From an uncultured delta proteobacterium (GTDB lineage Bacteria; Desulfobacterota; Desulfobacteria; Desulfobacterales; JAFDCJ01): a stretch of 64,000 nucleotides of DNA. Position 1 is the stretch's first letter. Every line of letters starts with the position of its first letter. The notes beneath the pieces are model-generated. The model was not told the origin of the DNA. It ran no database searches and worked only from the letters and a program-made list of their open reading frames with translations. Of this stretch, positions 1 through 23,606 are shown piece by piece. The DNA lies in NCBI GenBank assembly GCA_963769935.1, contig CAVYNY010000016.1, positions 160,001 through 224,000 of the forward strand, written 5' to 3'. A program made the position numbers and the translations under genes.

Positions 1-1
1 T

Positions 2-421
2 TTTTGTGCTGGAAACTTTTAGTCGGCTGTTGTCAAAAACAAACTTTTTTTGGGCATACGCAATTATCGTGCTTTCGAAATTATCCGAATCGGAGGGATC
101 AAGTTTTATAAGATCGCAGTCGAACTCAGTCAGATCCAAGCCGGCTGGATGAATATCCGATCCATCAAGCAGGAACAGGGCATATGGGAAACATGCCGAT
201 CGGATGGATTTTAATTCAAGCAGCAATTCATTTACCCATTTCATTTGACGGGTTGAAAATATGAATCCATAAGGCAAATCGGCATGTCTTCTGAGTTCAT
301 TTACAATCAGCGGAATTTCTTGCGAACCAAAGTTTAAAATTGGACTCAGAGAAAGTTCTACCCGACTGAAATTGGCCAATCTCATCTTAAGGGCCCTGTT
401 TGTATTTTCCGGTAAGATCAT
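2..421 (-). CDS. Hypothetical protein, 5' part only (runs off window start); third gene of the SAM-riboswitch operon
   Basis: Own translation: ATG at 421 preceded by GAGGA, open frame MILPENTNRALKMRLANFSRVELSLSPILNFGSQEIPLIVNELRRHADLPYGFIFSTRQMKWVNELLLELKS...KVSSTK to the window edge; absent from the ORF track because no stop is in the window. Confidence 0.75.
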   Translation of the reverse strand, partial: MILPENTNRALKMRLANFSRVELSLSPILNFGSQEIPLIVNELRRHADLPYGFIFSTRQMKWVNELLLELKSIRSACFPYALFLLDGSDIHPAGLDLTEFDCDLIKLDPSDSDNFESTIIAYAQKKFVFDNSRLKVSSTK

Positions 422-489
422 AGTATTTCCTCGAATTTCTGGTTTGATTTTATCCCACAGCCTTTTGGCCTTAAGGACGGAAATGGAAA

Positions 490-624
490 AGAAGTAGTTT
501 CAAAACCTCAGATCAGGTTCAAGGGCAAGGCGCGAGCCGATGAAAAAGCGCAGCATACACGGCAGTATGTGAGCATTTTGAAGAGGCTCGCAACGCAGCC
601 ATTGGGCCTTATGAAACCACTTCT
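490..624. mobile_element. MITE-like non-coding element with imperfect terminal inverted repeats
   Basis: Ends AGAAGTAGTTTTCA / TGAAACCACTTCT; internal CAAGGCGCGA...CGCAG...CGCAACGCAGCC core shared with 44096-44256. Confidence 0.55.
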
Positions 625-625
625 A

Positions 626-1765
626 CTAAAATTCTGCATTTGCCAGCCTTGCGCCTTCAACCAATGATTTTAACTTTAACCAGGCAATCTCGCCCGATAC
701 ACCGGCGGCAGAGGCCGTTGAGGCAAACCCGCAATCGGTTGAGCCGATAACTCTTGCGGGTCCAAGCAATCTTGCAAAATTTAGAATTCGCTGTGCGACC
801 AGTTCCGGATGTTCAATGGTATTGGAGGTCGTGTCGATGACACCCGGCATCAGAATTTTATTTTCAGGGACAGAAAAATTTTTTATAACTTCCCATTCAT
901 GCGCATGGCGATGGTTGCTGGATTCGATCGAAATATAGTTTGCATGAACCCGCATGATGCTGTTGAAGATTTTACTTAAATCAATATCGCAGTGATGGGT
1001 GCCGGGATAATTTCCCCAGCAAATGTGAGCTCGGCATTTTCCGCCGTCAATATTTTCCAGCGCCTGATTCAATATATCTAGATTGGTTTCGATCAAGGTT
1101 AAAAAGTATTCTTCCCGCAAGTCCTTAAACCTTGTATGTCTTCCCATTGCCAGATCAGGGCAGTCGATTTGCAGAAAAATTCCGTAACTACTTATTGTTT
1201 CATATTCCTGTTGCAATACCTCTCCTAATTTCTGAAGATACGTTTCGTAGCTTGCATAGTATTTATTCTCCAGAAACAGGGCCACTGTTCCCGGTGAAGG
1301 CGCGGTAAAAAACAACTCGGCGTCGGATTCCGGATACTTTTGTTTCAACTCATAAAAGACCCCGACCATCATATCCAGCTCTTTTCGCAATGATTCCCCG
1401 CCGGTATAGGCAAGCTCCTGCGAGCATGCCGGAAGCCTGATCGGTGCTTTGGGATTAAGTGTAATTAATCCGTTTCTGCCGCTAAACCTCCGGGCATATT
1501 CCGGCAGTTCTTCCAGATCTTTCGGAAAAGGGGCCGTGCCTGTGTCAAAAAACCCTGATATTCTATCGACAGTCGCGCTAATGTAATCGGATCTCGGCAA
1601 TTCACCATTGTTAATGAAAGATAATCCCAACCTAATTTGCTTTTCCAGAATGGTCCTCAAATGACGTCGCAAATCATCATCACTTATTTTTTTCTGCTTT
1701 AAAATCTGGAGGTGCATTTCATTGGGACGCGGCAAAGATCCGACGTGGGTGGTTTTAATTTTCAT
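626..1765 (-). CDS. Cobalamin-independent methionine synthase II family protein (MetE C-terminal catalytic half only)
   Basis: N-terminal TTHVGSLPRP, QIDCPD, Zn ligands HICWGN, E(SSN) and C-terminal DCGF; 379 aa, lacks the N-terminal half of MetE. Confidence 0.9.
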   Translation of the reverse strand: MKIKTTHVGSLPRPNEMHLQILKQKKISDDDLRRHLRTILEKQIRLGLSFINNGELPRSDYISATVDRISGFFDTGTAPFPKDLEELPEYARRFSGRNGLITLNPKAPIRLPACSQELAYTGGESLRKELDMMVGVFYELKQKYPESDAELFFTAPSPGTVALFLENKYYASYETYLQKLGEVLQQEYETISSYGIFLQIDCPDLAMGRHTRFKDLREEYFLTLIETNLDILNQALENIDGGKCRAHICWGNYPGTHHCDIDLSKIFNSIMRVHANYISIESSNHRHAHEWEVIKNFSVPENKILMPGVIDTTSNTIEHPELVAQRILNFARLLGPARVIGSTDCGFASTASAAGVSGEIAWLKLKSLVEGARLANAEF

Positions 1766-1800
1766 TTTTTTTGCAGCCTCTTTCTTTAAGCAGGAAGATT

Positions 1801-4554
1801 TTATAACAAAGAGTGAATCTCATCTATCAATTGGTCCGGCAGTGGATGTTCAAAAAGCAAATCGGAATCGATTTCGATTGCCAGCGAAGATTGGAGTTGA
1901 GTTATAAATTCGGTGGCACTCATTGAATCCAATCCCTGCTCAATCAGTTCAACATCCGGATCTATAATTTCAATGCTTGTAACTTTAAAAAACAGCCCTT
2001 GGATCAGCTGCTGGACTTGTTCCCGGGATAGTTTGCCTTTTCCATTATTACCCTTCTGAATTTCCGATCCAACATTTTCGAATACCTTCATATTATTTGG
2101 ACCGGCATCTAATTCAACACCGTTGCGGTCAAAATTTATAGCATCAAGCTGATAGTAATTCTCCAGCGATGAGGATCGCCCTCTATCAAATGGAACCGTT
2201 ATATTTTCAATTTCTTTTCTGACCCGCTTTTCCACTCCTTTGATGATGATATGGGCATTTGTTCCTCCAAACCCAAAACTGCTGATGCCGATGTGAGACT
2301 GACCATTTATGCTTGTCGCTTCAGAAACTACCCTTAGATTGAAAGATTCGAAATCAACATATTGATTGGGTCGGTTGAAATGCAGATTCGGCGGAATCGT
2401 GCCATGATACAGGATCAGTACTGATTTTATTAACCCGGCTATACCGGCTGCAGACTCCAGGTGCCCGATATTTGATTTTACCGACCCCAGATAACAATTA
2501 TTTTTGCGGCTCTTGGCAATTGTCCGTTGAATAGCTGAAATTTCAATCGGATCGCCGATCTTAGTGCCGGTCCCATGACATTCGATATAGGATATATCCT
2601 GCGGTTTGATGGCTGCATCCCGACAGGCATCTAAAATTAATTCCTCCTGGGCTTCCGGATGGGGCGCCGTGATAATCTGTGAACGCCCTCCATTTTGATT
2701 AATGGCTGAGCCCAATAGTTCGGCATAATAATTTTTTACCCGCTTTTTATTCGCCAACAGAACCAAGCCGCCGCCTTCGGCCCGAACGTAGCCATCGGCC
2801 GAATTATCAAAAACCTTGCAGCGATTATCTTTCGACAAAAATCCCGAATTTTTCATTTTATCGGTAAAATCATTTCCCAGGATCATATTCACCCCGCCCG
2901 CAATTGCATAGTCGACCCGGCCGGCCTCAATATCTTTGGCAGCATAATGGAGCGCAACCAATGAAGAGGAACAGGCGGTGTTGGAAACCCAACTCGGCCC
3001 CCTCAAATCATAATGGTAGCTTATGCGGGATGCTATTATGCTGGGGTTGGTTCCGGACGGATAATAAACTGAATTTCTGTCACCCCTGTATTCTTGATTC
3101 CATACGCCGATATATACGCCGATTCTTTTTTTATCCAACTTAGCGGGATCAAGGCCGGCGTCTTTAAAAAGTAGTTCCGTTAATTCAAGCGCCAATATCT
3201 GTTGAGGATCCATTGTTTGGGCTTCGGCTTCCGAGATATTAAAATATTTATGGTCAAACCTGGTTATTTCATCATTCAAAAAACCGGCTTCGAAATTACT
3301 CCGGCCGGCATTGGCCTTTACTTGATCTTCTCCCCTCAACAACATATCCCAAAATTGAGTCAAATTTTCGATCGATGATGGAAATCGACAACTCATTCCG
3401 GATATAACCACTTCATTTTTTAGGGATTTTAAATTCAAGGCCTGGTCAGATGGTTGGGTTGATCCAAAATTGTTAATCAATTGATTAATTGTCTTATATC
3501 TATAAAAGTCCTGCGGCGCTAAATTGGGAAAATAGGTTTGCAAAAATTCGGACAACTCAGCAAAAGTCAGCGATGTAAACCCCTGATACGCCAAAGAAGT
3601 TTTAAAATCCACGCCGGGGCGAAATTCTTCTATTGAACGTTTTAGTTTGTTCAAAAACGGATCTTGATCGAGCAGTTTCCGCTGATGCAATATCCACTCT
3701 ATTTCATCCTCTCCTCTAAACATCGATGATACATATTTATAGCTATCAAAAATATCACAACATTTATCCAACACCGGATGAAAACCAATCTCGATTATTT
3801 CCAGTTCATCATCATTAAACCTGGTTTTGATGGTTTGCATGGAACTGATAAAATCGACCGGACTGACCAACCATCGTTGCCAGTGATCGGCATTTAACTG
3901 GTTTTCAAAATTGGCCGTGAGGCCTGATACAAACCTGAAATCTTCTATTTTGCGGGATCGGACAGGGGGCAGTTTATCACTGAAACCATGGTAATCCGGG
4001 TGGTGCCACGGATGGGGCAGTCTCATGGTTACAAAACCAGGGTTTTTCTCTACGAATTCAGTCATTTCATTGGTGTATCCGCTCAAGGTTACATGGTTGT
4101 GAATACCCCTTTTGAAATTCAGGGAAGACAGGTTTACCGATAATTCTTCTATCTGTTGATTCGACAACTCACCATGCAGCATCACGCCTTCCAAATTGGA
4201 GGCTATTTCACCGATCCGAAAGGTTACGTCGAGAATATCTTCCAGGGAATAAAGCCCCGCTTGATATGAAGCCGATAATTCTCCGATACTGTGTCCGATA
4301 ACCACATCCGGATTATATCCCCACTGGGTCCAAATATCGGACAGACAGATTTGCGATACGACCGTCAACAGCGGACTGTAGGGACACCGATGTTTACCGA
4401 TCTCATTTTCCCAGATTTCTTCTAAATTTAAACCAAATTTTGAATCTAATATGGATCGTATTTCAGACCAGCATTGCGAATGTTCCAATAGTTTGAAGCT
4501 GCTATCGCTGTTGCTGGTGCCTTCCCCTGAATATAAATATATAATTTTTTTCAT
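1801..4554 (-). CDS. Minimal type I polyketide synthase-like protein, domain order AT-ACP-KS-ACP
   Basis: AT GHSIG; first ACP QGFTSL; KS DPQQ, TACSSS, HGTGT, KSNIGHLE, SSFGFGGTNAH; C-terminal ACP QGLDSM; start at 4554 (MKKII) has GAGG RBS. Confidence 0.9.
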   Translation of the reverse strand: MKKIIYLYSGEGTSNSDSSFKLLEHSQCWSEIRSILDSKFGLNLEEIWENEIGKHRCPYSPLLTVVSQICLSDIWTQWGYNPDVVIGHSIGELSASYQAGLYSLEDILDVTFRIGEIASNLEGVMLHGELSNQQIEELSVNLSSLNFKRGIHNHVTLSGYTNEMTEFVEKNPGFVTMRLPHPWHHPDYHGFSDKLPPVRSRKIEDFRFVSGLTANFENQLNADHWQRWLVSPVDFISSMQTIKTRFNDDELEIIEIGFHPVLDKCCDIFDSYKYVSSMFRGEDEIEWILHQRKLLDQDPFLNKLKRSIEEFRPGVDFKTSLAYQGFTSLTFAELSEFLQTYFPNLAPQDFYRYKTINQLINNFGSTQPSDQALNLKSLKNEVVISGMSCRFPSSIENLTQFWDMLLRGEDQVKANAGRSNFEAGFLNDEITRFDHKYFNISEAEAQTMDPQQILALELTELLFKDAGLDPAKLDKKRIGVYIGVWNQEYRGDRNSVYYPSGTNPSIIASRISYHYDLRGPSWVSNTACSSSLVALHYAAKDIEAGRVDYAIAGGVNMILGNDFTDKMKNSGFLSKDNRCKVFDNSADGYVRAEGGGLVLLANKKRVKNYYAELLGSAINQNGGRSQIITAPHPEAQEELILDACRDAAIKPQDISYIECHGTGTKIGDPIEISAIQRTIAKSRKNNCYLGSVKSNIGHLESAAGIAGLIKSVLILYHGTIPPNLHFNRPNQYVDFESFNLRVVSEATSINGQSHIGISSFGFGGTNAHIIIKGVEKRVRKEIENITVPFDRGRSSSLENYYQLDAINFDRNGVELDAGPNNMKVFENVGSEIQKGNNGKGKLSREQVQQLIQGLFFKVTSIEIIDPDVELIEQGLDSMSATEFITQLQSSLAIEIDSDLLFEHPLPDQLIDEIHSLL

Positions 4555-4635
4555 ATTGGTGACCTCGGCATATTGCTGGCTTACGCTGTTTAATTTAATC
4601 CCCAACTTGGAGAAATTTACCGTTCAAAAATTTGC

Positions 4636-4663
4636 AAAAAAAAACCTCCCGACAGGGGGAGGT
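4636..4663 (-). terminator. Intrinsic terminator of the SAM-I riboswitch expression platform
   Basis: Minus strand ACCTCCC-loop-GGGAGGT followed by T9; its 5' arm ACCTC can alternatively pair with GAGGT at the 3' end of aptamer P1. Confidence 0.85.
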
Positions 4664-4687
4664 AAGATGCCATTTGTCTTCAGCGAC

Positions 4688-4781
4688 CTCATGTTCCCCT
4701 TACGGGACTGGATTTAGCACCTTTATGGAATAGGTTGCTGAGCGGTCAACGGGCCAGTTCCCTCACGCTACTCTTCATGAC
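4688..4781 (-). ncRNA. SAM-I (S-box) riboswitch aptamer
   Basis: Minus strand GTCATGAAGAG-TAGCGTGAGGGAACTGGCCCGTTGACCGCTC-AGCAACC...AAGGTGCTAAATCCAG-TCCCGTAAGGGG-AACATGAG matches the S-box consensus order. Confidence 0.92.
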
Positions 4782-4797
4782 TCTTTAATTTCTAATT

Positions 4798-4825
4798 ATG
4801 ATAGGGATGATACATTTAAAGTCAA
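4798..4825 (-). promoter_or_regulatory. Candidate sigma70 promoter for the riboswitch/PKS operon
   Basis: Minus strand TTGACT-16 nt-TATCAT(AAT) immediately upstream of the aptamer. Confidence 0.55.
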
Positions 4826-4850
4826 GCTTCATCGGAATTTTTTTTTAGAC

Positions 4851-5000
4851 CCCAGCCCGGAAAAGCCGAAGCCAAGATGGACAAATTAATCACGAAAGCG
4901 CGAAAGGACGAAAACACGAAAAGAATAAAAGACTATTTTCGTGCTTTTCTAGATTTCGTATTTTCGTGATAAAAAATTTTTCATAAAATGCAAAGAAATA
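4851..5000. repeat. CACGAAA/TTTCGTG periodic palindromic element, copy 1
   Basis: CACGAAAGCGCGAAAGGACGAAAACACGAAA...TTTCGTG arms; flanks match 60903-61064 in reverse orientation. Confidence 0.75.
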
Positions 5001-5038
5001 ACTATCAAGATTCCAAAGTAGAACTTCCCAGCCATTGC

Positions 5039-5767
5039 CTACAAATCTAAACGATCCAAGAAATCAATAATGGCCCGGTTAAACTCCTCCGGCTTTTCCA
5101 TAGGCAGAATATGCCCGGCTTCAGCAACTATTATCCGGCTTGCCTTCGGGATATTATTTTCCAAAAATTCTCCATACTTAAGTGGTGTCAACTGATCGTC
5201 GGCCGCCGACACCACCAACACGGGCAGTGTGATCGACCCCACAAGCTGCATCACATCGAATCGGTTGCAGGCATGAAAATCTCCCAACGCAACCGCGGGT
5301 TTACATCGTGCCGCTTCTCCCTGAAAACGCTTAATTAGTTCCGGCCCGGTTGTTTTGGAGGCGACGGATTTGCCGATCATCGACAGGTAACCGCTGTAAT
5401 CATTTTCCAGCGTATCGAAGATCGCGGGCGCCACCTTGAGCTTGGCACCCGTATTGACCAGGATCCCGGCCTTTATAAAGTCCGGGTAGTCAAGCAGAAG
5501 CTGCTGGGTGACGGCTCCCCCCATGCTGATTCCGCAAATAACAGGGCTTGAAACGCCGAGTGCTTTGATAAAATCAATAACCGACCGGGCATAGTCTTCG
5601 ATACGATCGCATCCGATTCCGCCGCTTCGACCGTGGCCGGGCAAATCAAGGGCAATCGTATTCGCGTGTGCAGCCAGACCCTCGACCTGCGCCTGCCAAA
5701 AAAAGCCGGATCCGCCGGCACCGTGAATGAAAAAAATTGTGGATTTTGCCGGATCCGGCGGCCACAT
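5039..5767 (-). CDS. Alpha/beta fold hydrolase
   Basis: FIHGAGG oxyanion motif, DLPGHG, GISMGG nucleophile elbow, AGH catalytic His; true start probably ~5807 behind GGAGG with an apparent indel. Confidence 0.85.
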   Translation of the reverse strand: MWPPDPAKSTIFFIHGAGGSGFFWQAQVEGLAAHANTIALDLPGHGRSGGIGCDRIEDYARSVIDFIKALGVSSPVICGISMGGAVTQQLLLDYPDFIKAGILVNTGAKLKVAPAIFDTLENDYSGYLSMIGKSVASKTTGPELIKRFQGEAARCKPAVALGDFHACNRFDVMQLVGSITLPVLVVSAADDQLTPLKYGEFLENNIPKASRIIVAEAGHILPMEKPEEFNRAIIDFLDRLDL

Positions 5768-7515: not shown

Positions 7516-8898
7516 TTACAATACCAGAGATTTAATAAAATCCAGCAGTTGATTGAGGTTTTGGCAGGGTCGCACTTCGTCACAGCAGCTCTGGTAGGTG
7601 CGCATCTCACTGTCGCCCGAATACCAGAAATACTGAGTTTCCGGGTTCAACCAGATCACGCGCCGGGATTTTTCACGCATTTCCTCCAGAATTTGATCTT
7701 CAGGATTGCCATAATTGGTTCGGCCGTCGCCGATAATGATCAAAGTGGTCTTCTTATTGAGTATGTCCATATAATGCATTTTAAACTGGCGAAAAGTCAG
7801 ACCATAATCGGTGGCGGCATTGTATTCGATGTCGGCCTCCCGCAGTACCTTTGCAATAGCCTGGTTGATCTCAAAATCCTCAAAGACTTTGGTTACTTCA
7901 TCCAAACCGGCCACGAATACGAAACTGCGCACCTGGGTAAAGCACTCCTGCAGAGAATACAGCATGTTCAGCATGAATCTGGCCGCCGACCAGACCGAAC
8001 CCGAGACATCGCACAGGGTGACGATTTTGGTTTTACGCGGGGGCCGGTTGCGGAAAAAAAGCTCCACGGGAATACCCTGGTAACCGGCTGCCCGGCGCAG
8101 GGTCTTCTTGACATCCAGCGTACCTCTGTTTTTAACGGCATGGCGCCGGCCGGCAATGTCTTTGAGTTTGCGGACGAGCTGCTCGATAACTTCGCGCATG
8201 CCTTCCACTTCTTTTTTGGTCAGAGAAGCAAAATGGACTTCGCCGAGTCGTTCCAGATGCTGCTGATAGGAGCCAACCTCACGACGGTCATCACCAAAAG
8301 GACGGGGTTGCCCGGTAAGCAGACGGCGGGCGCTGGCCAGACGGGCCTCGAAAAGCGCCTTCAGATCCCGGCGAGTTTCCCAGTGCAGCCGATCCCGCTG
8401 TTCGGCCAGAAACAGCAACAGCGAATCTTCCAGAGCATTAATCTGCAGCATCAGTTCAAGACGCTGAATCATGGGTCCCAGGTTGGCGCCCATGCCGCCG
8501 CCTTTCCCGTCGCCTTCGAGAAAACCCTGCTGCAAGCGCTCAATAAACGACAGGGGATCGCCCCTTAAAAAATCAAGCAGGGCCTGGGCGGCGCCATTGC
8601 CGTTTTGTTCGGGGAACAAGGCTTGAAGCACCTCGCGAATCTGCTCGGACAGGGGATCGGCATGTGCAATACTAGGATCCTGGCGCAGTTCATGAAAAAA
8701 CAGCTCATACAGGCGGTCGAAGTGAAATTGCTCCCGCCGGCTTTTCGCAAAATTGGCCCGCAGCACCGCGGCAAACTGCGCCTCATCCAGTAGGTCGACC
8801 AGTTTAAGCTGTTTGAGACAATCGAGCACCTCGGAGGTGGAAATCCGGAGGCCGGCCGCACGGGCGATGGAGACGAATTTCAGCAGTAAATTTACCAT
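7516..8898 (-). CDS. VWA domain protein (CoxE-like)
   Basis: DVSGS MIDAS motif, TDYG, IIGDGRTNY, WLNPE; downstream of a MoxR ATPase. Confidence 0.88.
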   Translation of the reverse strand: MVNLLLKFVSIARAAGLRISTSEVLDCLKQLKLVDLLDEAQFAAVLRANFAKSRREQFHFDRLYELFFHELRQDPSIAHADPLSEQIREVLQALFPEQNGNGAAQALLDFLRGDPLSFIERLQQGFLEGDGKGGGMGANLGPMIQRLELMLQINALEDSLLLFLAEQRDRLHWETRRDLKALFEARLASARRLLTGQPRPFGDDRREVGSYQQHLERLGEVHFASLTKKEVEGMREVIEQLVRKLKDIAGRRHAVKNRGTLDVKKTLRRAAGYQGIPVELFFRNRPPRKTKIVTLCDVSGSVWSAARFMLNMLYSLQECFTQVRSFVFVAGLDEVTKVFEDFEINQAIAKVLREADIEYNAATDYGLTFRQFKMHYMDILNKKTTLIIIGDGRTNYGNPEDQILEEMREKSRRVIWLNPETQYFWYSGDSEMRTYQSCCDEVRPCQNLNQLLDFIKSLVL

Positions 8899-8954
8899 AG
8901 TCTTTATGCATTAAACTGCTCATATATAGTTAAAACCAACCACACCAACTTTTA

Positions 8955-9164
8955 AAATCACAAATCTCAAGCACCAAATTACAAATAAATTCCAATATTC
9001 AATGACCAAAACATTCACCACAAGCGCAGCTTATCGCTTCTAAAATCCCGGGGAGTTAGGGAATGATTCCATTGGGGGCAGTGGTAGGCGGATCGTTTGT
9101 TTGGATTTTTGAATTTGGCTCATTGAGATTTGTTTGGAATTTGGTTATTGGTGCTTGGAATTTT
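8955..9164. repeat. Periodic inverted-arm element (CAAAT.. / ..ATTTG) between MoxR and VWA genes
   Basis: Left arm AAATCACAAATCTCAAGCACCAAATTACAAATAAATTCC, right arm GATTTGTTTGGAATTTGGTTATTGGTGCTTGGAATTT; a right-arm-like copy also at ~12245-12281. Confidence 0.6.
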
Positions 9165-9280
9165 CATGTTTTTCATAAGGCAGGCAATTTTCACAAAATA
9201 AGTCAATTGCTTTTTTAGGTGACGCAGTCCTGGCCTCGACAGTTAATAGAAATAGACAGAATACCTTAATTTTAGGCATC

Positions 9281-10204
9281 TTAGACCATTTTGGGCATTT
9301 CCAATATCTTCCCCATCTTCTCCATCACCTGTTTCACATCAGTCCGGTATTTGCATATAACATTGAGGGTGTCGGTAATGACCTCGGGGCTTAACTCTTC
9401 AACCTGCAGGGCGATCAGAGATTGGGCCCAGTCCAGGGTCTCAGATATACAGGGTTTCTTTTTTAAATCCAGTTCGCGGATTTTGCGAATGGCGCCCACC
9501 AGCTGTCCGGCCAATCGATCTTTTATCTGCGGAATCTTCAGTTTTACGATTTGCAGCTCGAGCTCGCGTTCGGGGTAATCGATGTAAAGATGGATACATC
9601 TTCTTTTAAGCGCATCACTCATGTCCCGGGAATCATTGGATGTCAGAAAAACAAAGGGAATGTTCCTGGCCTTGCGGGTGCCCAGCTCCGGGATAGACAC
9701 CTGGAAATCACTTAATATTTCCAATAAAAAGGCTTCAAACTCCGGATCGGATTTATCCACCTCGTCTATTAGAAGCACGGCGGGCTCTTCCGATTCGATG
9801 GCCTGCAGGAGCGGACGGGGCTGGATAAAGCGCTCCGAAAAAAAAGCATCTTCCTGGGATGCAATCCGGTCAACGGCATCCGACAGGGAATGGGCCCCGG
9901 TAATCACATCGTCGATTTTCCCTTTTACCATCTGCGTGTAAAGCAGCTGTTTGGCATACTCCCACTCATAGAGGGCTTTGGCTTCATCCAGCCCTTCGTA
10001 GCATTGAAGCCGGATTAATTGGCGCTCCAGGCTTCGGGCCACGGCTTTGGAAAGCTCGGTTTTGCCCACCCCCGCCGGCCCCTCAACCAGAACCGGTTTG
10101 CGGGTGGCCTGGGCCAGAAAGACAACCGTGGCAATGGTCTTGGAACAGATGTATTCGGCTTTCTCCAGTTCGGCTTTGACATGCTCGACGTTTTTAAATT
10201 CCAT
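9281..10204 (-). CDS. MoxR family AAA+ ATPase (CoxD-like)
   Basis: EGPAGVGKT, RLQCYEGLD, LLIDEVDK, DALKRRC. Confidence 0.92.
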   Translation of the reverse strand: MEFKNVEHVKAELEKAEYICSKTIATVVFLAQATRKPVLVEGPAGVGKTELSKAVARSLERQLIRLQCYEGLDEAKALYEWEYAKQLLYTQMVKGKIDDVITGAHSLSDAVDRIASQEDAFFSERFIQPRPLLQAIESEEPAVLLIDEVDKSDPEFEAFLLEILSDFQVSIPELGTRKARNIPFVFLTSNDSRDMSDALKRRCIHLYIDYPERELELQIVKLKIPQIKDRLAGQLVGAIRKIRELDLKKKPCISETLDWAQSLIALQVEELSPEVITDTLNVICKYRTDVKQVMEKMGKILEMPKMV

Positions 10205-10591
10205 TAAAGAAGTCCTCACCGCCTAAACTCTCTGAATTTCTGCAACTAATTTTGTCAGGCACGGGTATTTGCTTCAATCCCGGACTATGACTGGTTGCCC
10301 TGTTGGCCCGTGTCGGCAAACCGGCAAACCGGTTGACCGGCTAACCGGCAACTTATATACCACAGCGGCATGTCCAAGTACACCGATAAGTACGAACATG
10401 CGCGCAACAGCGATTCTTGGCCGGCACATGCCGATAATTTAGCTAAGACCCGGATATTATGTTACTAAAAAATCCTCAATTTCAACCAATTAAAGAAATT
10501 CCGAGTCGTTTGCCCTTGCTATCTTGGCTGGCTGGATTTAAACTGCTCCCGCATTGAAAATTTATGTGAATTCCGCATACGGGAGATCACA

Positions 10592-23292: not shown

Positions 23293-23503
23293 TCCGCCCT
23301 GAAAAATAAAGTCCTGGCGGTTGTGCATTGTTCTATGTAAATTGAAGAAAGTTGGTAGATCGAAGGTTCAGCGGATTAATTAGCTTTTTGTTCTTGACAA
23401 CACAACCTCGATCTCTTAACTTTTTATATTATTAGTTACTACGCTTTCAAAGAATCATATTCAAACCTGAACACACACTATTTTTCAGGGCGGATTAATT
23501 AAT
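23284..23503. mobile_element. MITE-like element with perfect 25-bp inverted ends
   Basis: ATTAATTAATCCGCCCTGAAAAATA (23284-23308) is the exact reverse complement of 23479-23503. Confidence 0.65.
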
Positions 23504-23576
23504 ATTAGGGGTGGCTTCCGAAGCCTGAGATTACACCCTTTGAACCTGATCTGGATAATGCCAGCGTAGGGAAACG
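23503..23576 (+). ncRNA. TPP (THI-box) riboswitch
   Basis: TAGGGGTG..CTGAGA..ACCCTTTGAACCTGATCTGGATAATGCCAGCGTAGGGAA upstream of thiM. Confidence 0.95.
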
Positions 23577-23606
23577 AGTGGAAGAACAATTGCGAGATGC
23601 AAACCC

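Follow-up and report, generated by a model that had tools for sequence, protein, structure and literature searches.

In a 64,000-nt stretch of contig CAVYNY010000016.1 (G000:C16; the window, in whose coordinates feature positions are given), we examined three minus-strand genes that follow an S-adenosylmethionine (SAM)-I riboswitch and encode a mini polyketide synthase (PKS, gene 1), a half-size or 'core' MetE-family methyltransferase (gene 2) and a flavin monooxygenase (FMO)-like protein (gene 3). Judged by its domain content and order, this conserved, SAM-regulated three-gene unit represents the algal MetE-fusion in a split, bacterial form; its role probably lies in methionine synthesis. We propose, by analogy and with a probability of roughly 0.4, that the unit would synthesize methionine independently of folate and B12, with the methyl group drawn from acetyl-CoA via an O2-dependent cycle of carrier-bound methyl esters. 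The third gene is central to this proposed mechanism.

The linkage of the three genes was examined in genomes and metagenomes. When species genomes were scanned with gene 2, 14 loci were recovered, of which 12 were close (64-82% identity; labelled Desulfobacterales, Desulfocapsaceae, delta-proteobacteria and Myxococcota) and two were distant (L014 and L015, 38-39% MetE relatives with neither PKS nor flavoprotein, which we used as outgroups). Gene 3 was adjacent in 12/12 of the close loci and the PKS gene in 11/12, the twelfth being a 1.9-kb contig. From a metagenome scan with gene 3 we took the best 80 of 121 relatives, counting L096 (see below) among the 80, and found the MetE gene in 52 of the 53 loci with more than 500 bases upstream and PKS domains in 33 of the 34 with more than 2000 bases upstream. 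The first-pass annotation of the window had placed the PKS in primary methionine metabolism, with an acyl carrier protein (ACP)-tethered methyl donor, and had asked whether PKS homologues are linked to MetE-like genes or S-boxes elsewhere; the linkage across many loci, the SAM riboswitches and the eukaryotic fusion support that assignment. A recent insertion of the PKS between the S-box and the met gene was considered as well and is ruled out by the linkage across loci together with the eukaryotic fusion. The exception among the metagenome loci, L025:2284-3898, is a flavoprotein copy from which the N-terminal domain and the two partner genes are absent; it is probably a remnant left by truncation. 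Two genome loci, L004 and L011, have a PKS broken over several frames, and the MetE of L011 is shortened, by sequencing error or decay.

A SAM-I riboswitch preceded the PKS gene in 20 of 33 loci scanned with Rfam (6/12 genome loci, and 14/21 metagenome loci picked for having upstream DNA), and a SAM-I model built from seven copies gave 24 matches in 95 loci, training copies included. The distribution of the unit is patchy: it was present in 7/100 relatives, among them 6/22 genomes within the genus, probably overlapping those of the gene 2 scan, and absent from 400/400 other genomes of a phylum sample.

A search for longer proteins gave 59 matches, mostly fusions from dinoflagellates, haptophytes, labyrinthulids and sources without a name, and the domain order of the eukaryotic fusions is the bacterial gene order: acyltransferase (AT), ACP, ketosynthase (KS), ACP, core MetE and CzcO/FMO-like domain. 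The MetE-fusion of Phaeocystis antarctica and other protists (PMC10861871; this and the other articles are cited for the parts of their text that were available) shares this domain set and order, with identities to the bacterial genes of 35-44% for MetE, 34-53% for the KS and 38-50% for the flavoprotein domain; it is one polypeptide, whereas the bacterial loci hold three open reading frames (ORFs) under SAM riboswitches. In Phaeocystis the MetE-fusion increases when B12 is absent, in a trade-off with MetH, and it has been put forward as a means by which Phaeocystis and other bloom-forming algae escape B12 dependence; in the available text the role of the extra domains is left undetermined, and no donor chemistry is proposed for the PKS or the flavoprotein (PMC10861871). 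Prokaryotic homologues were said in the same text to be without the extra domains. One 'core' entry of its supplement, RJQ87929.1, opens with a sequence identical to that of the MetE gene of L009, which is the middle gene of a full SAM-I-led operon, and the bacterial operon, as read from sequence, corrects that statement. The first-pass annotation had also called the route undescribed, but the domain set was already known as the algal MetE-fusion. We found no publication on the operon, its riboswitches or the methyl-ester chemistry in a search that stopped short of the subscription literature and the SI appendix of PMC10861871.

The bacterial and fused forms made up one clade against the outgroups in both of our trees, which were built from 33 and 30 chosen rows with L096 placed with the fused forms, and for the MetE domain the clade had 99 SH-aLRT support against four stand-alone outgroups. 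As to the direction of transfer, FastTree nested the bacteria among the fused forms, the node was left open by IQ-TREE, and a single fused clade was not rejected by the approximately unbiased (AU) test (p 0.215). Locus L096, on a contig of 62% GC, has ACP, MetE and flavoprotein domains fused in one gene, with AT-ACP-KS on a divergent gene of its own, and groups with algal sequences; the arrangement is the one described for Phaeocystis by Rao et al. (PMC10861871). Single-ORF fusions, mostly of 1870-1900 aa, were present on metagenome contigs of up to 245 kb (P0126, P0129-P0132, P0144 and P0181). Their KS is 43-53% identical to the bacterial KS, and one cluster member came from a 0.22-0.45 micron Tara fraction; the source may be a bacterium, a giant virus or an intron-poor protist. 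Two pattern scans of IMG/VR, a weak test of viral origin, gave no relative of these intronless fusions.

The leader of the PKS gene in the window is, by its sequence and predicted pairing, a SAM-I riboswitch with a terminator and a competing antiterminator, as the first-pass annotation had proposed. The aptamer matched the full RF00162 model at 59.8 bits (E 2.5e-11, cut-off 44.4), the sole match in the whole 8.0-Mb genome, and a computed fold allows the left arm of the terminator to pair with the 3' strand of P1 at -5.2 kcal/mol. Promoter-like and terminator sites in the region were not commoner than in shuffles (10 vs 11.8 and 5 vs 5.5, respectively), so it is the position of the two elements, not their count, that we take as evidence; the leader as a whole folded no better than shuffles (z 0.11). 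The three ORFs were recovered as first annotated, and the operon is indeed AT-richer (42.4% GC vs 51.2% for the genome), a value equalled or undercut in 1.3% of 1275 windows of the same size. The operon is a prediction, and its unity is subject to the caveat of the repeat-filled gap that separates the third gene. A near-identical strain was covered across operon and flanks in four sediment metatranscriptome runs of one study; we did not use this as evidence, as level, strand, co-transcription and attenuation are not readable from such contigs, DNA carry-over is possible, and the deeper leader bin holds a repeat.

In one lineage the MetE gene is inverted and a different element lies before the PKS gene, between promoter and terminator. 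This SAM-II-like element precedes the PKS in six loci (L005, L006, L008, L065, L074 and L108) and is degenerate in L073. Its P1 stem is 94% paired, the conserved loop and the 3' motif are invariant in eight copies, and pairing of the 3' motif into the terminator is possible in a computed fold. A model of the leader matched 3 of 151 genomes of that lineage's order with one match new, at L112:1366-1556 (-), where two elements in tandem, with a terminator behind the first, lie upstream of an N-terminal fragment of metK. Several results speak against the assignment. The Rfam scores (RF00521/RF01726) of 20.2, 19.4 and 14.5 bits lie under the cut-off of 36, the best being a SAM_alpha match in L005 (20.2 bits, E 0.026); the SAM-II class ranked top in two of three short scans and was outranked in L108 (14.5 bits); a 10-kb scan of four loci gave no SAM match; and covariation was not significant (136/500 shuffles). 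We regard a SAM-II-type switch as the likely nature of this leader. Because it controls the PKS alone in the rearranged loci, the PKS itself would be the regulated part.

The 917-aa PKS (934 aa if the upstream TTG at 4605 is the start) carries two ACPs, one AT and one KS, and the domain search found no ketoreductase (KR), dehydratase (DH), enoylreductase (ER), thioesterase (TE) or second AT. The residue at AT Ser+25 was Ile or Leu, never Arg, in 29/29 loci, and the malonyl-binding Arg was absent from 39/39 aligned bacterial and eukaryotic homologues; three of the four other ATs of the genome have the Arg, as do solved extender ATs. ATs without this Arg are loaders of non-carboxylated starters, and we infer that the AT is of the starter type. 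In the KS, the Cys and the second His were kept in 39/39 homologues and the first His in 38/39; as the triad is intact, a single condensation to acetoacetyl-ACP would be expected. The features of a modular type I PKS with a released product, namely an extender AT with the Arg and a reductive or release domain, were not found. The genome also encodes a FabD-like AT and has one phosphopantetheinyl transferase (PPTase) match.

Gene 2 has the residue set of the core methionine synthases as defined in PMC7857596, with zinc ligands H247, C249, E281 and C345 and homocysteine-binding residues S10, E55 and D201. These sites were kept in 111/111 MetE sequences, C345 in 110/111. The folate-binding half is missing, so the methyl donor must be found elsewhere, and the genome has no second Meth_synt_2 gene.

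Gene 3 encodes a 140-aa N-terminal domain, which had no Pfam or Atlas match and no paralogue in the genome, followed by a class B flavin monooxygenase-like domain with two conserved Rossmann dinucleotide motifs. Its structure model (pLDDT 77) matched the DiatB monooxygenase (Z 22.3, rmsd 3.8, 380 aligned) and a steroid monooxygenase (Z 18.5, rmsd 4.7, 388 aligned). From the model and the motifs, the product is class B flavin monooxygenase-like, with a disulfide reductase tied in the fold search (see below). Six of the seven nearest flavoprotein relatives without MetE from the longer-protein search were PKS-associated, as was the best plasmid match. Outside the system, gene 3 has its nearest relatives (P0175-P0180 and L113:7294-11190) in a little-described family of PKS-associated FMO-like domains; the architectures seen among gene 3 relatives are KR-ACP-oxygenase-hydrolase (two cases), A-ACP-KS-oxygenase and oxygenase-sulfotransferase-TE.

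Table 1. Predicted features of the riboswitch-led operon, in window coordinates
Feature	Position	Strand	Remarks
Sigma-70-like promoter (predicted)	4798..4825	-	10/12 consensus positions; 15 nt upstream of aptamer
SAM-I (S-box) riboswitch aptamer	4686..4783	-	RF00162 covariance model
Intrinsic terminator of expression platform	4635..4663	-	Hairpin 4663-4644, then T run
Mini-PKS AT-ACP1-KS-ACP2, 917 aa	1801..4554	-	Domain search
Acyltransferase (AT)	3670..4554	-	Ser89 intact; Ile114 at malonyl-binding Arg position
ACP1, Ser328	3451..3669	-	Ser in 39/39 aligned homologues
Ketosynthase (KS): Cys528, His660, His698	2212..3417	-	Domain search and alignment
ACP2, Ser877	1822..1983	-	Duplicated in some homologues
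Core (half-size) MetE-family zinc-thiol methyltransferase, 379 aa	626..1765	-	Meth_synt_2
Palindromic intergenic repeat	491..625	.	5 other genome copies; fills 204-bp gap before third gene
5' part of 619-aa gene (gene 3)	1..421	-	Runs past window edge; whole gene G000:C16:160421-158562

In the cycle that we propose, low SAM would lead to read-through of the terminator. The Arg-less AT would load acetyl onto ACP1 and hand it to the KS cysteine, and the KS would condense acetyl with malonyl-ACP2, primed once by the host FabD, giving acetoacetyl-ACP2 and CO2. Using NADPH and O2, the flavoprotein may then insert oxygen on the methyl side of the ketone in an OocK-like Baeyer-Villiger reaction to form the methyl ester of malonyl-ACP2, from which the zinc-activated thiolate of homocysteine would take the methyl group, yielding methionine and regenerating malonyl-ACP2. 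The net reaction would be acetyl-CoA + homocysteine + O2 + NADPH to methionine + CO2 + CoA + NADP+ + water. Being closed, such a cycle would account for the starter-type AT and for the missing extender AT, thioesterase and reductive domains. Removal of an ester-linked methyl group by a zinc thiolate is known from the Ada repair protein. OocK acts on beta-ketoacyl thioesters, which it turns into malonyl esters (PMC6174933), and OocK/PedG and LbmC-Ox likewise are class B flavoproteins beside a KS-ACP unit without reductive domains (PMC6174933, PMC7586987); by their descriptions, from which we draw the likeness, the proposed substrate is a beta-ketoacyl thioester as it would be here, whereas those systems handle long chains in secondary metabolism and have no counterpart to the methyl transfer. 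MesD with its partner MesX is an O2-dependent core methionine synthase, and central metabolism is the predicted origin of the methyl group; this enzyme too needs a partner protein and neither folate nor cobalamin (PMC7857596). It differs in that its hosts are aerobes and its partner is MesX, in place of PKS and flavoprotein. The MesD structure 3RPD matched our core MetE weakly (E 2.6e-5), and a search limited to the operon's three proteins found no MesX (DUF1852) domain.

A number of observations count against this proposal. Neither SAM-I nor the SAM-II-like leader was found in L046, L062, L082 and L088, where upstream DNA is present. Most of the named hosts are Desulfobacterota or records labelled Myxococcota, largely of anaerobe lineages; the genome of the window has two aa3-type oxidase matches, but none was found in the six other carriers of the genus and there was no enrichment among carriers. 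Matches to PF00115 were present in 12/13 carrier genomes, a count that has no matched control and probably includes nitric oxide (NO) reductases. In the fold search, bacillithiol disulfide reductase (Z 21.6) ties with DiatB, and thioredoxin reductases scored 16-18. The flavoprotein lacks the fingerprint His of type I Baeyer-Villiger monooxygenases (BVMOs), a Ser taking its place near G293-G298; Gln193 aligns with the Asp of PAMO, so that the catalytic Asp of that class is missing too, and the invariant Asn195 resembles FMOs. The zinc- and homocysteine-position residues of gene 2 recur in the four stand-alone relatives, one of which has a Lys near E55, and are therefore not specific to methionine synthesis. 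Methyl is a poor migrating group in Baeyer-Villiger chemistry, and a methyl ester is a weak donor. The function of related core-MetE homologues of marine bacteria is doubtful (PMC12478193), of 11 substrates given to OocK only two, of medium or long chain, were converted (PMC6174933), and in the literature, as far as its text was available, we found no measured activity for any family member.

The flavoprotein may also work on the other side of the ketone. LbmC-Ox inserts oxygen on the side opposite to that proposed here, so that beta-ketothioesters yield the reversed ester (PMC7586987). With oxygen on the thioester side the product would be acetoxyacetyl-ACP, from which homocysteine would displace acetate, and the carboxymethyl thioether would be released and decarboxylated; alternatively, another oxidative cleavage would free the methyl group. 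The regulatory and linkage evidence fits this chemistry equally well. It would, however, need a release step, a decarboxylase and a new malonyl per turn, and the conserved domains include no thioesterase, decarboxylase or extender AT. We consider it unlikely. The disulfide-reductase folds near the top of the fold search, the mostly anaerobic lineages of the hosts, the lack of aa3 oxidase enrichment and the genome's homocysteine methyltransferase next to a B12-binding protein would suit a scheme without O2, in which the core MetE uses a methyl-corrinoid protein, as MesB/MesC, or a methylated solute as donor and the flavoprotein serves as a reductase or in zinc delivery; zinc trafficking was a speculation of Rao et al. 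(PMC10861871). The corrinoid-dependent core synthases MesA/MesB/MesC share the half-size MetE fold, the zinc and homocysteine residues and anaerobic hosts (PMC7857596), but the scores here were far under the NCBIfam cut-offs (best 79.5 vs 406 bits), and the conserved genes include no corrinoid protein. This scheme leaves an intact, always-linked PKS unexplained, as well as the SAM-II-like leader before the PKS alone; C348 is the single conserved Cys of the flavoprotein domain, so there would be no redox dithiol, and lack of B12 induces the algal fusion (PMC10861871). We consider it quite unlikely.

Explanations outside methionine synthase function fare less well. The unit may be a small cluster for a sulfur metabolite, in which the oxygenase would generate an electrophile on the ACP, for instance an epoxide, to which the MetE-like protein would couple a thiol, as epoxyalkane:coenzyme M transferase does. 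This would agree with the patchy distribution, with the unrelated catabolic or tailoring neighbourhoods of the stand-alone MetE relatives (~39% identity), and with the database label epoxyalkane--coenzyme M transferase on close relatives in the PMC10861871 supplements. The PKS has no KR or DH for an alkene and no release domain, and the MetH trade-off in Phaeocystis (PMC10861871) also speaks against such a cluster. A switch that answers SAM scarcity suits supply, not consumption. Genes behind a terminator-type SAM switch are on at low SAM. Taken together, a sulfur-metabolite role is very unlikely. The first-pass annotation had further allowed that the PKS builds the carbon backbone of homocysteine or that the operon serves salvage of methylthio compounds. 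Genes of homocysteine synthesis and salvage are also under SAM riboswitches; the intact homocysteine-binding residues, however, point to homocysteine as the substrate, and the three conserved genes hold no aminotransferase, sulfhydrylase or reductive domain, making these alternatives highly improbable.

For the bacteria, the methyl-ester cycle that we favour would be a backup to B12-dependent synthesis. The first-pass annotation's question whether carriers lack other methionine synthases received a negative answer: homocysteine S-methyltransferase domains were found in 11/13 carrier genomes, and the genome of the window has four, one of which is beside the B12-binding protein. Elsewhere in the window we recorded a second intergenic repeat family at ~4830-5040 (63 further BLAST pieces), a thiamine pyrophosphate (TPP) riboswitch at 23497-23589 (+; 73 bits), and a CoxE-like von Willebrand factor A (VWA) protein with a MoxR-type AAA ATPase at 7516-10219 (-).

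The regulation of the bacterial operon is a separate line of evidence that places the PKS in SAM and methionine supply, and the operon's three intron-free genes make the MetE-fusion system testable in E. coli. We suggest, a shade more tentatively than the cycle itself, that the system may represent a new one-carbon source in sediment bacteria and fusion-bearing marine algae, in which the methyl group of acetyl-CoA would pass through a carrier-bound methyl ester to homocysteine, with malonyl-ACP recycled, folate and B12 bypassed, and two unrelated SAM riboswitch classes recruited for its control. If true, a polyketide synthase would take part in amino-acid biosynthesis, and acetyl-CoA would supply the methyl groups of SAM without folate or B12.

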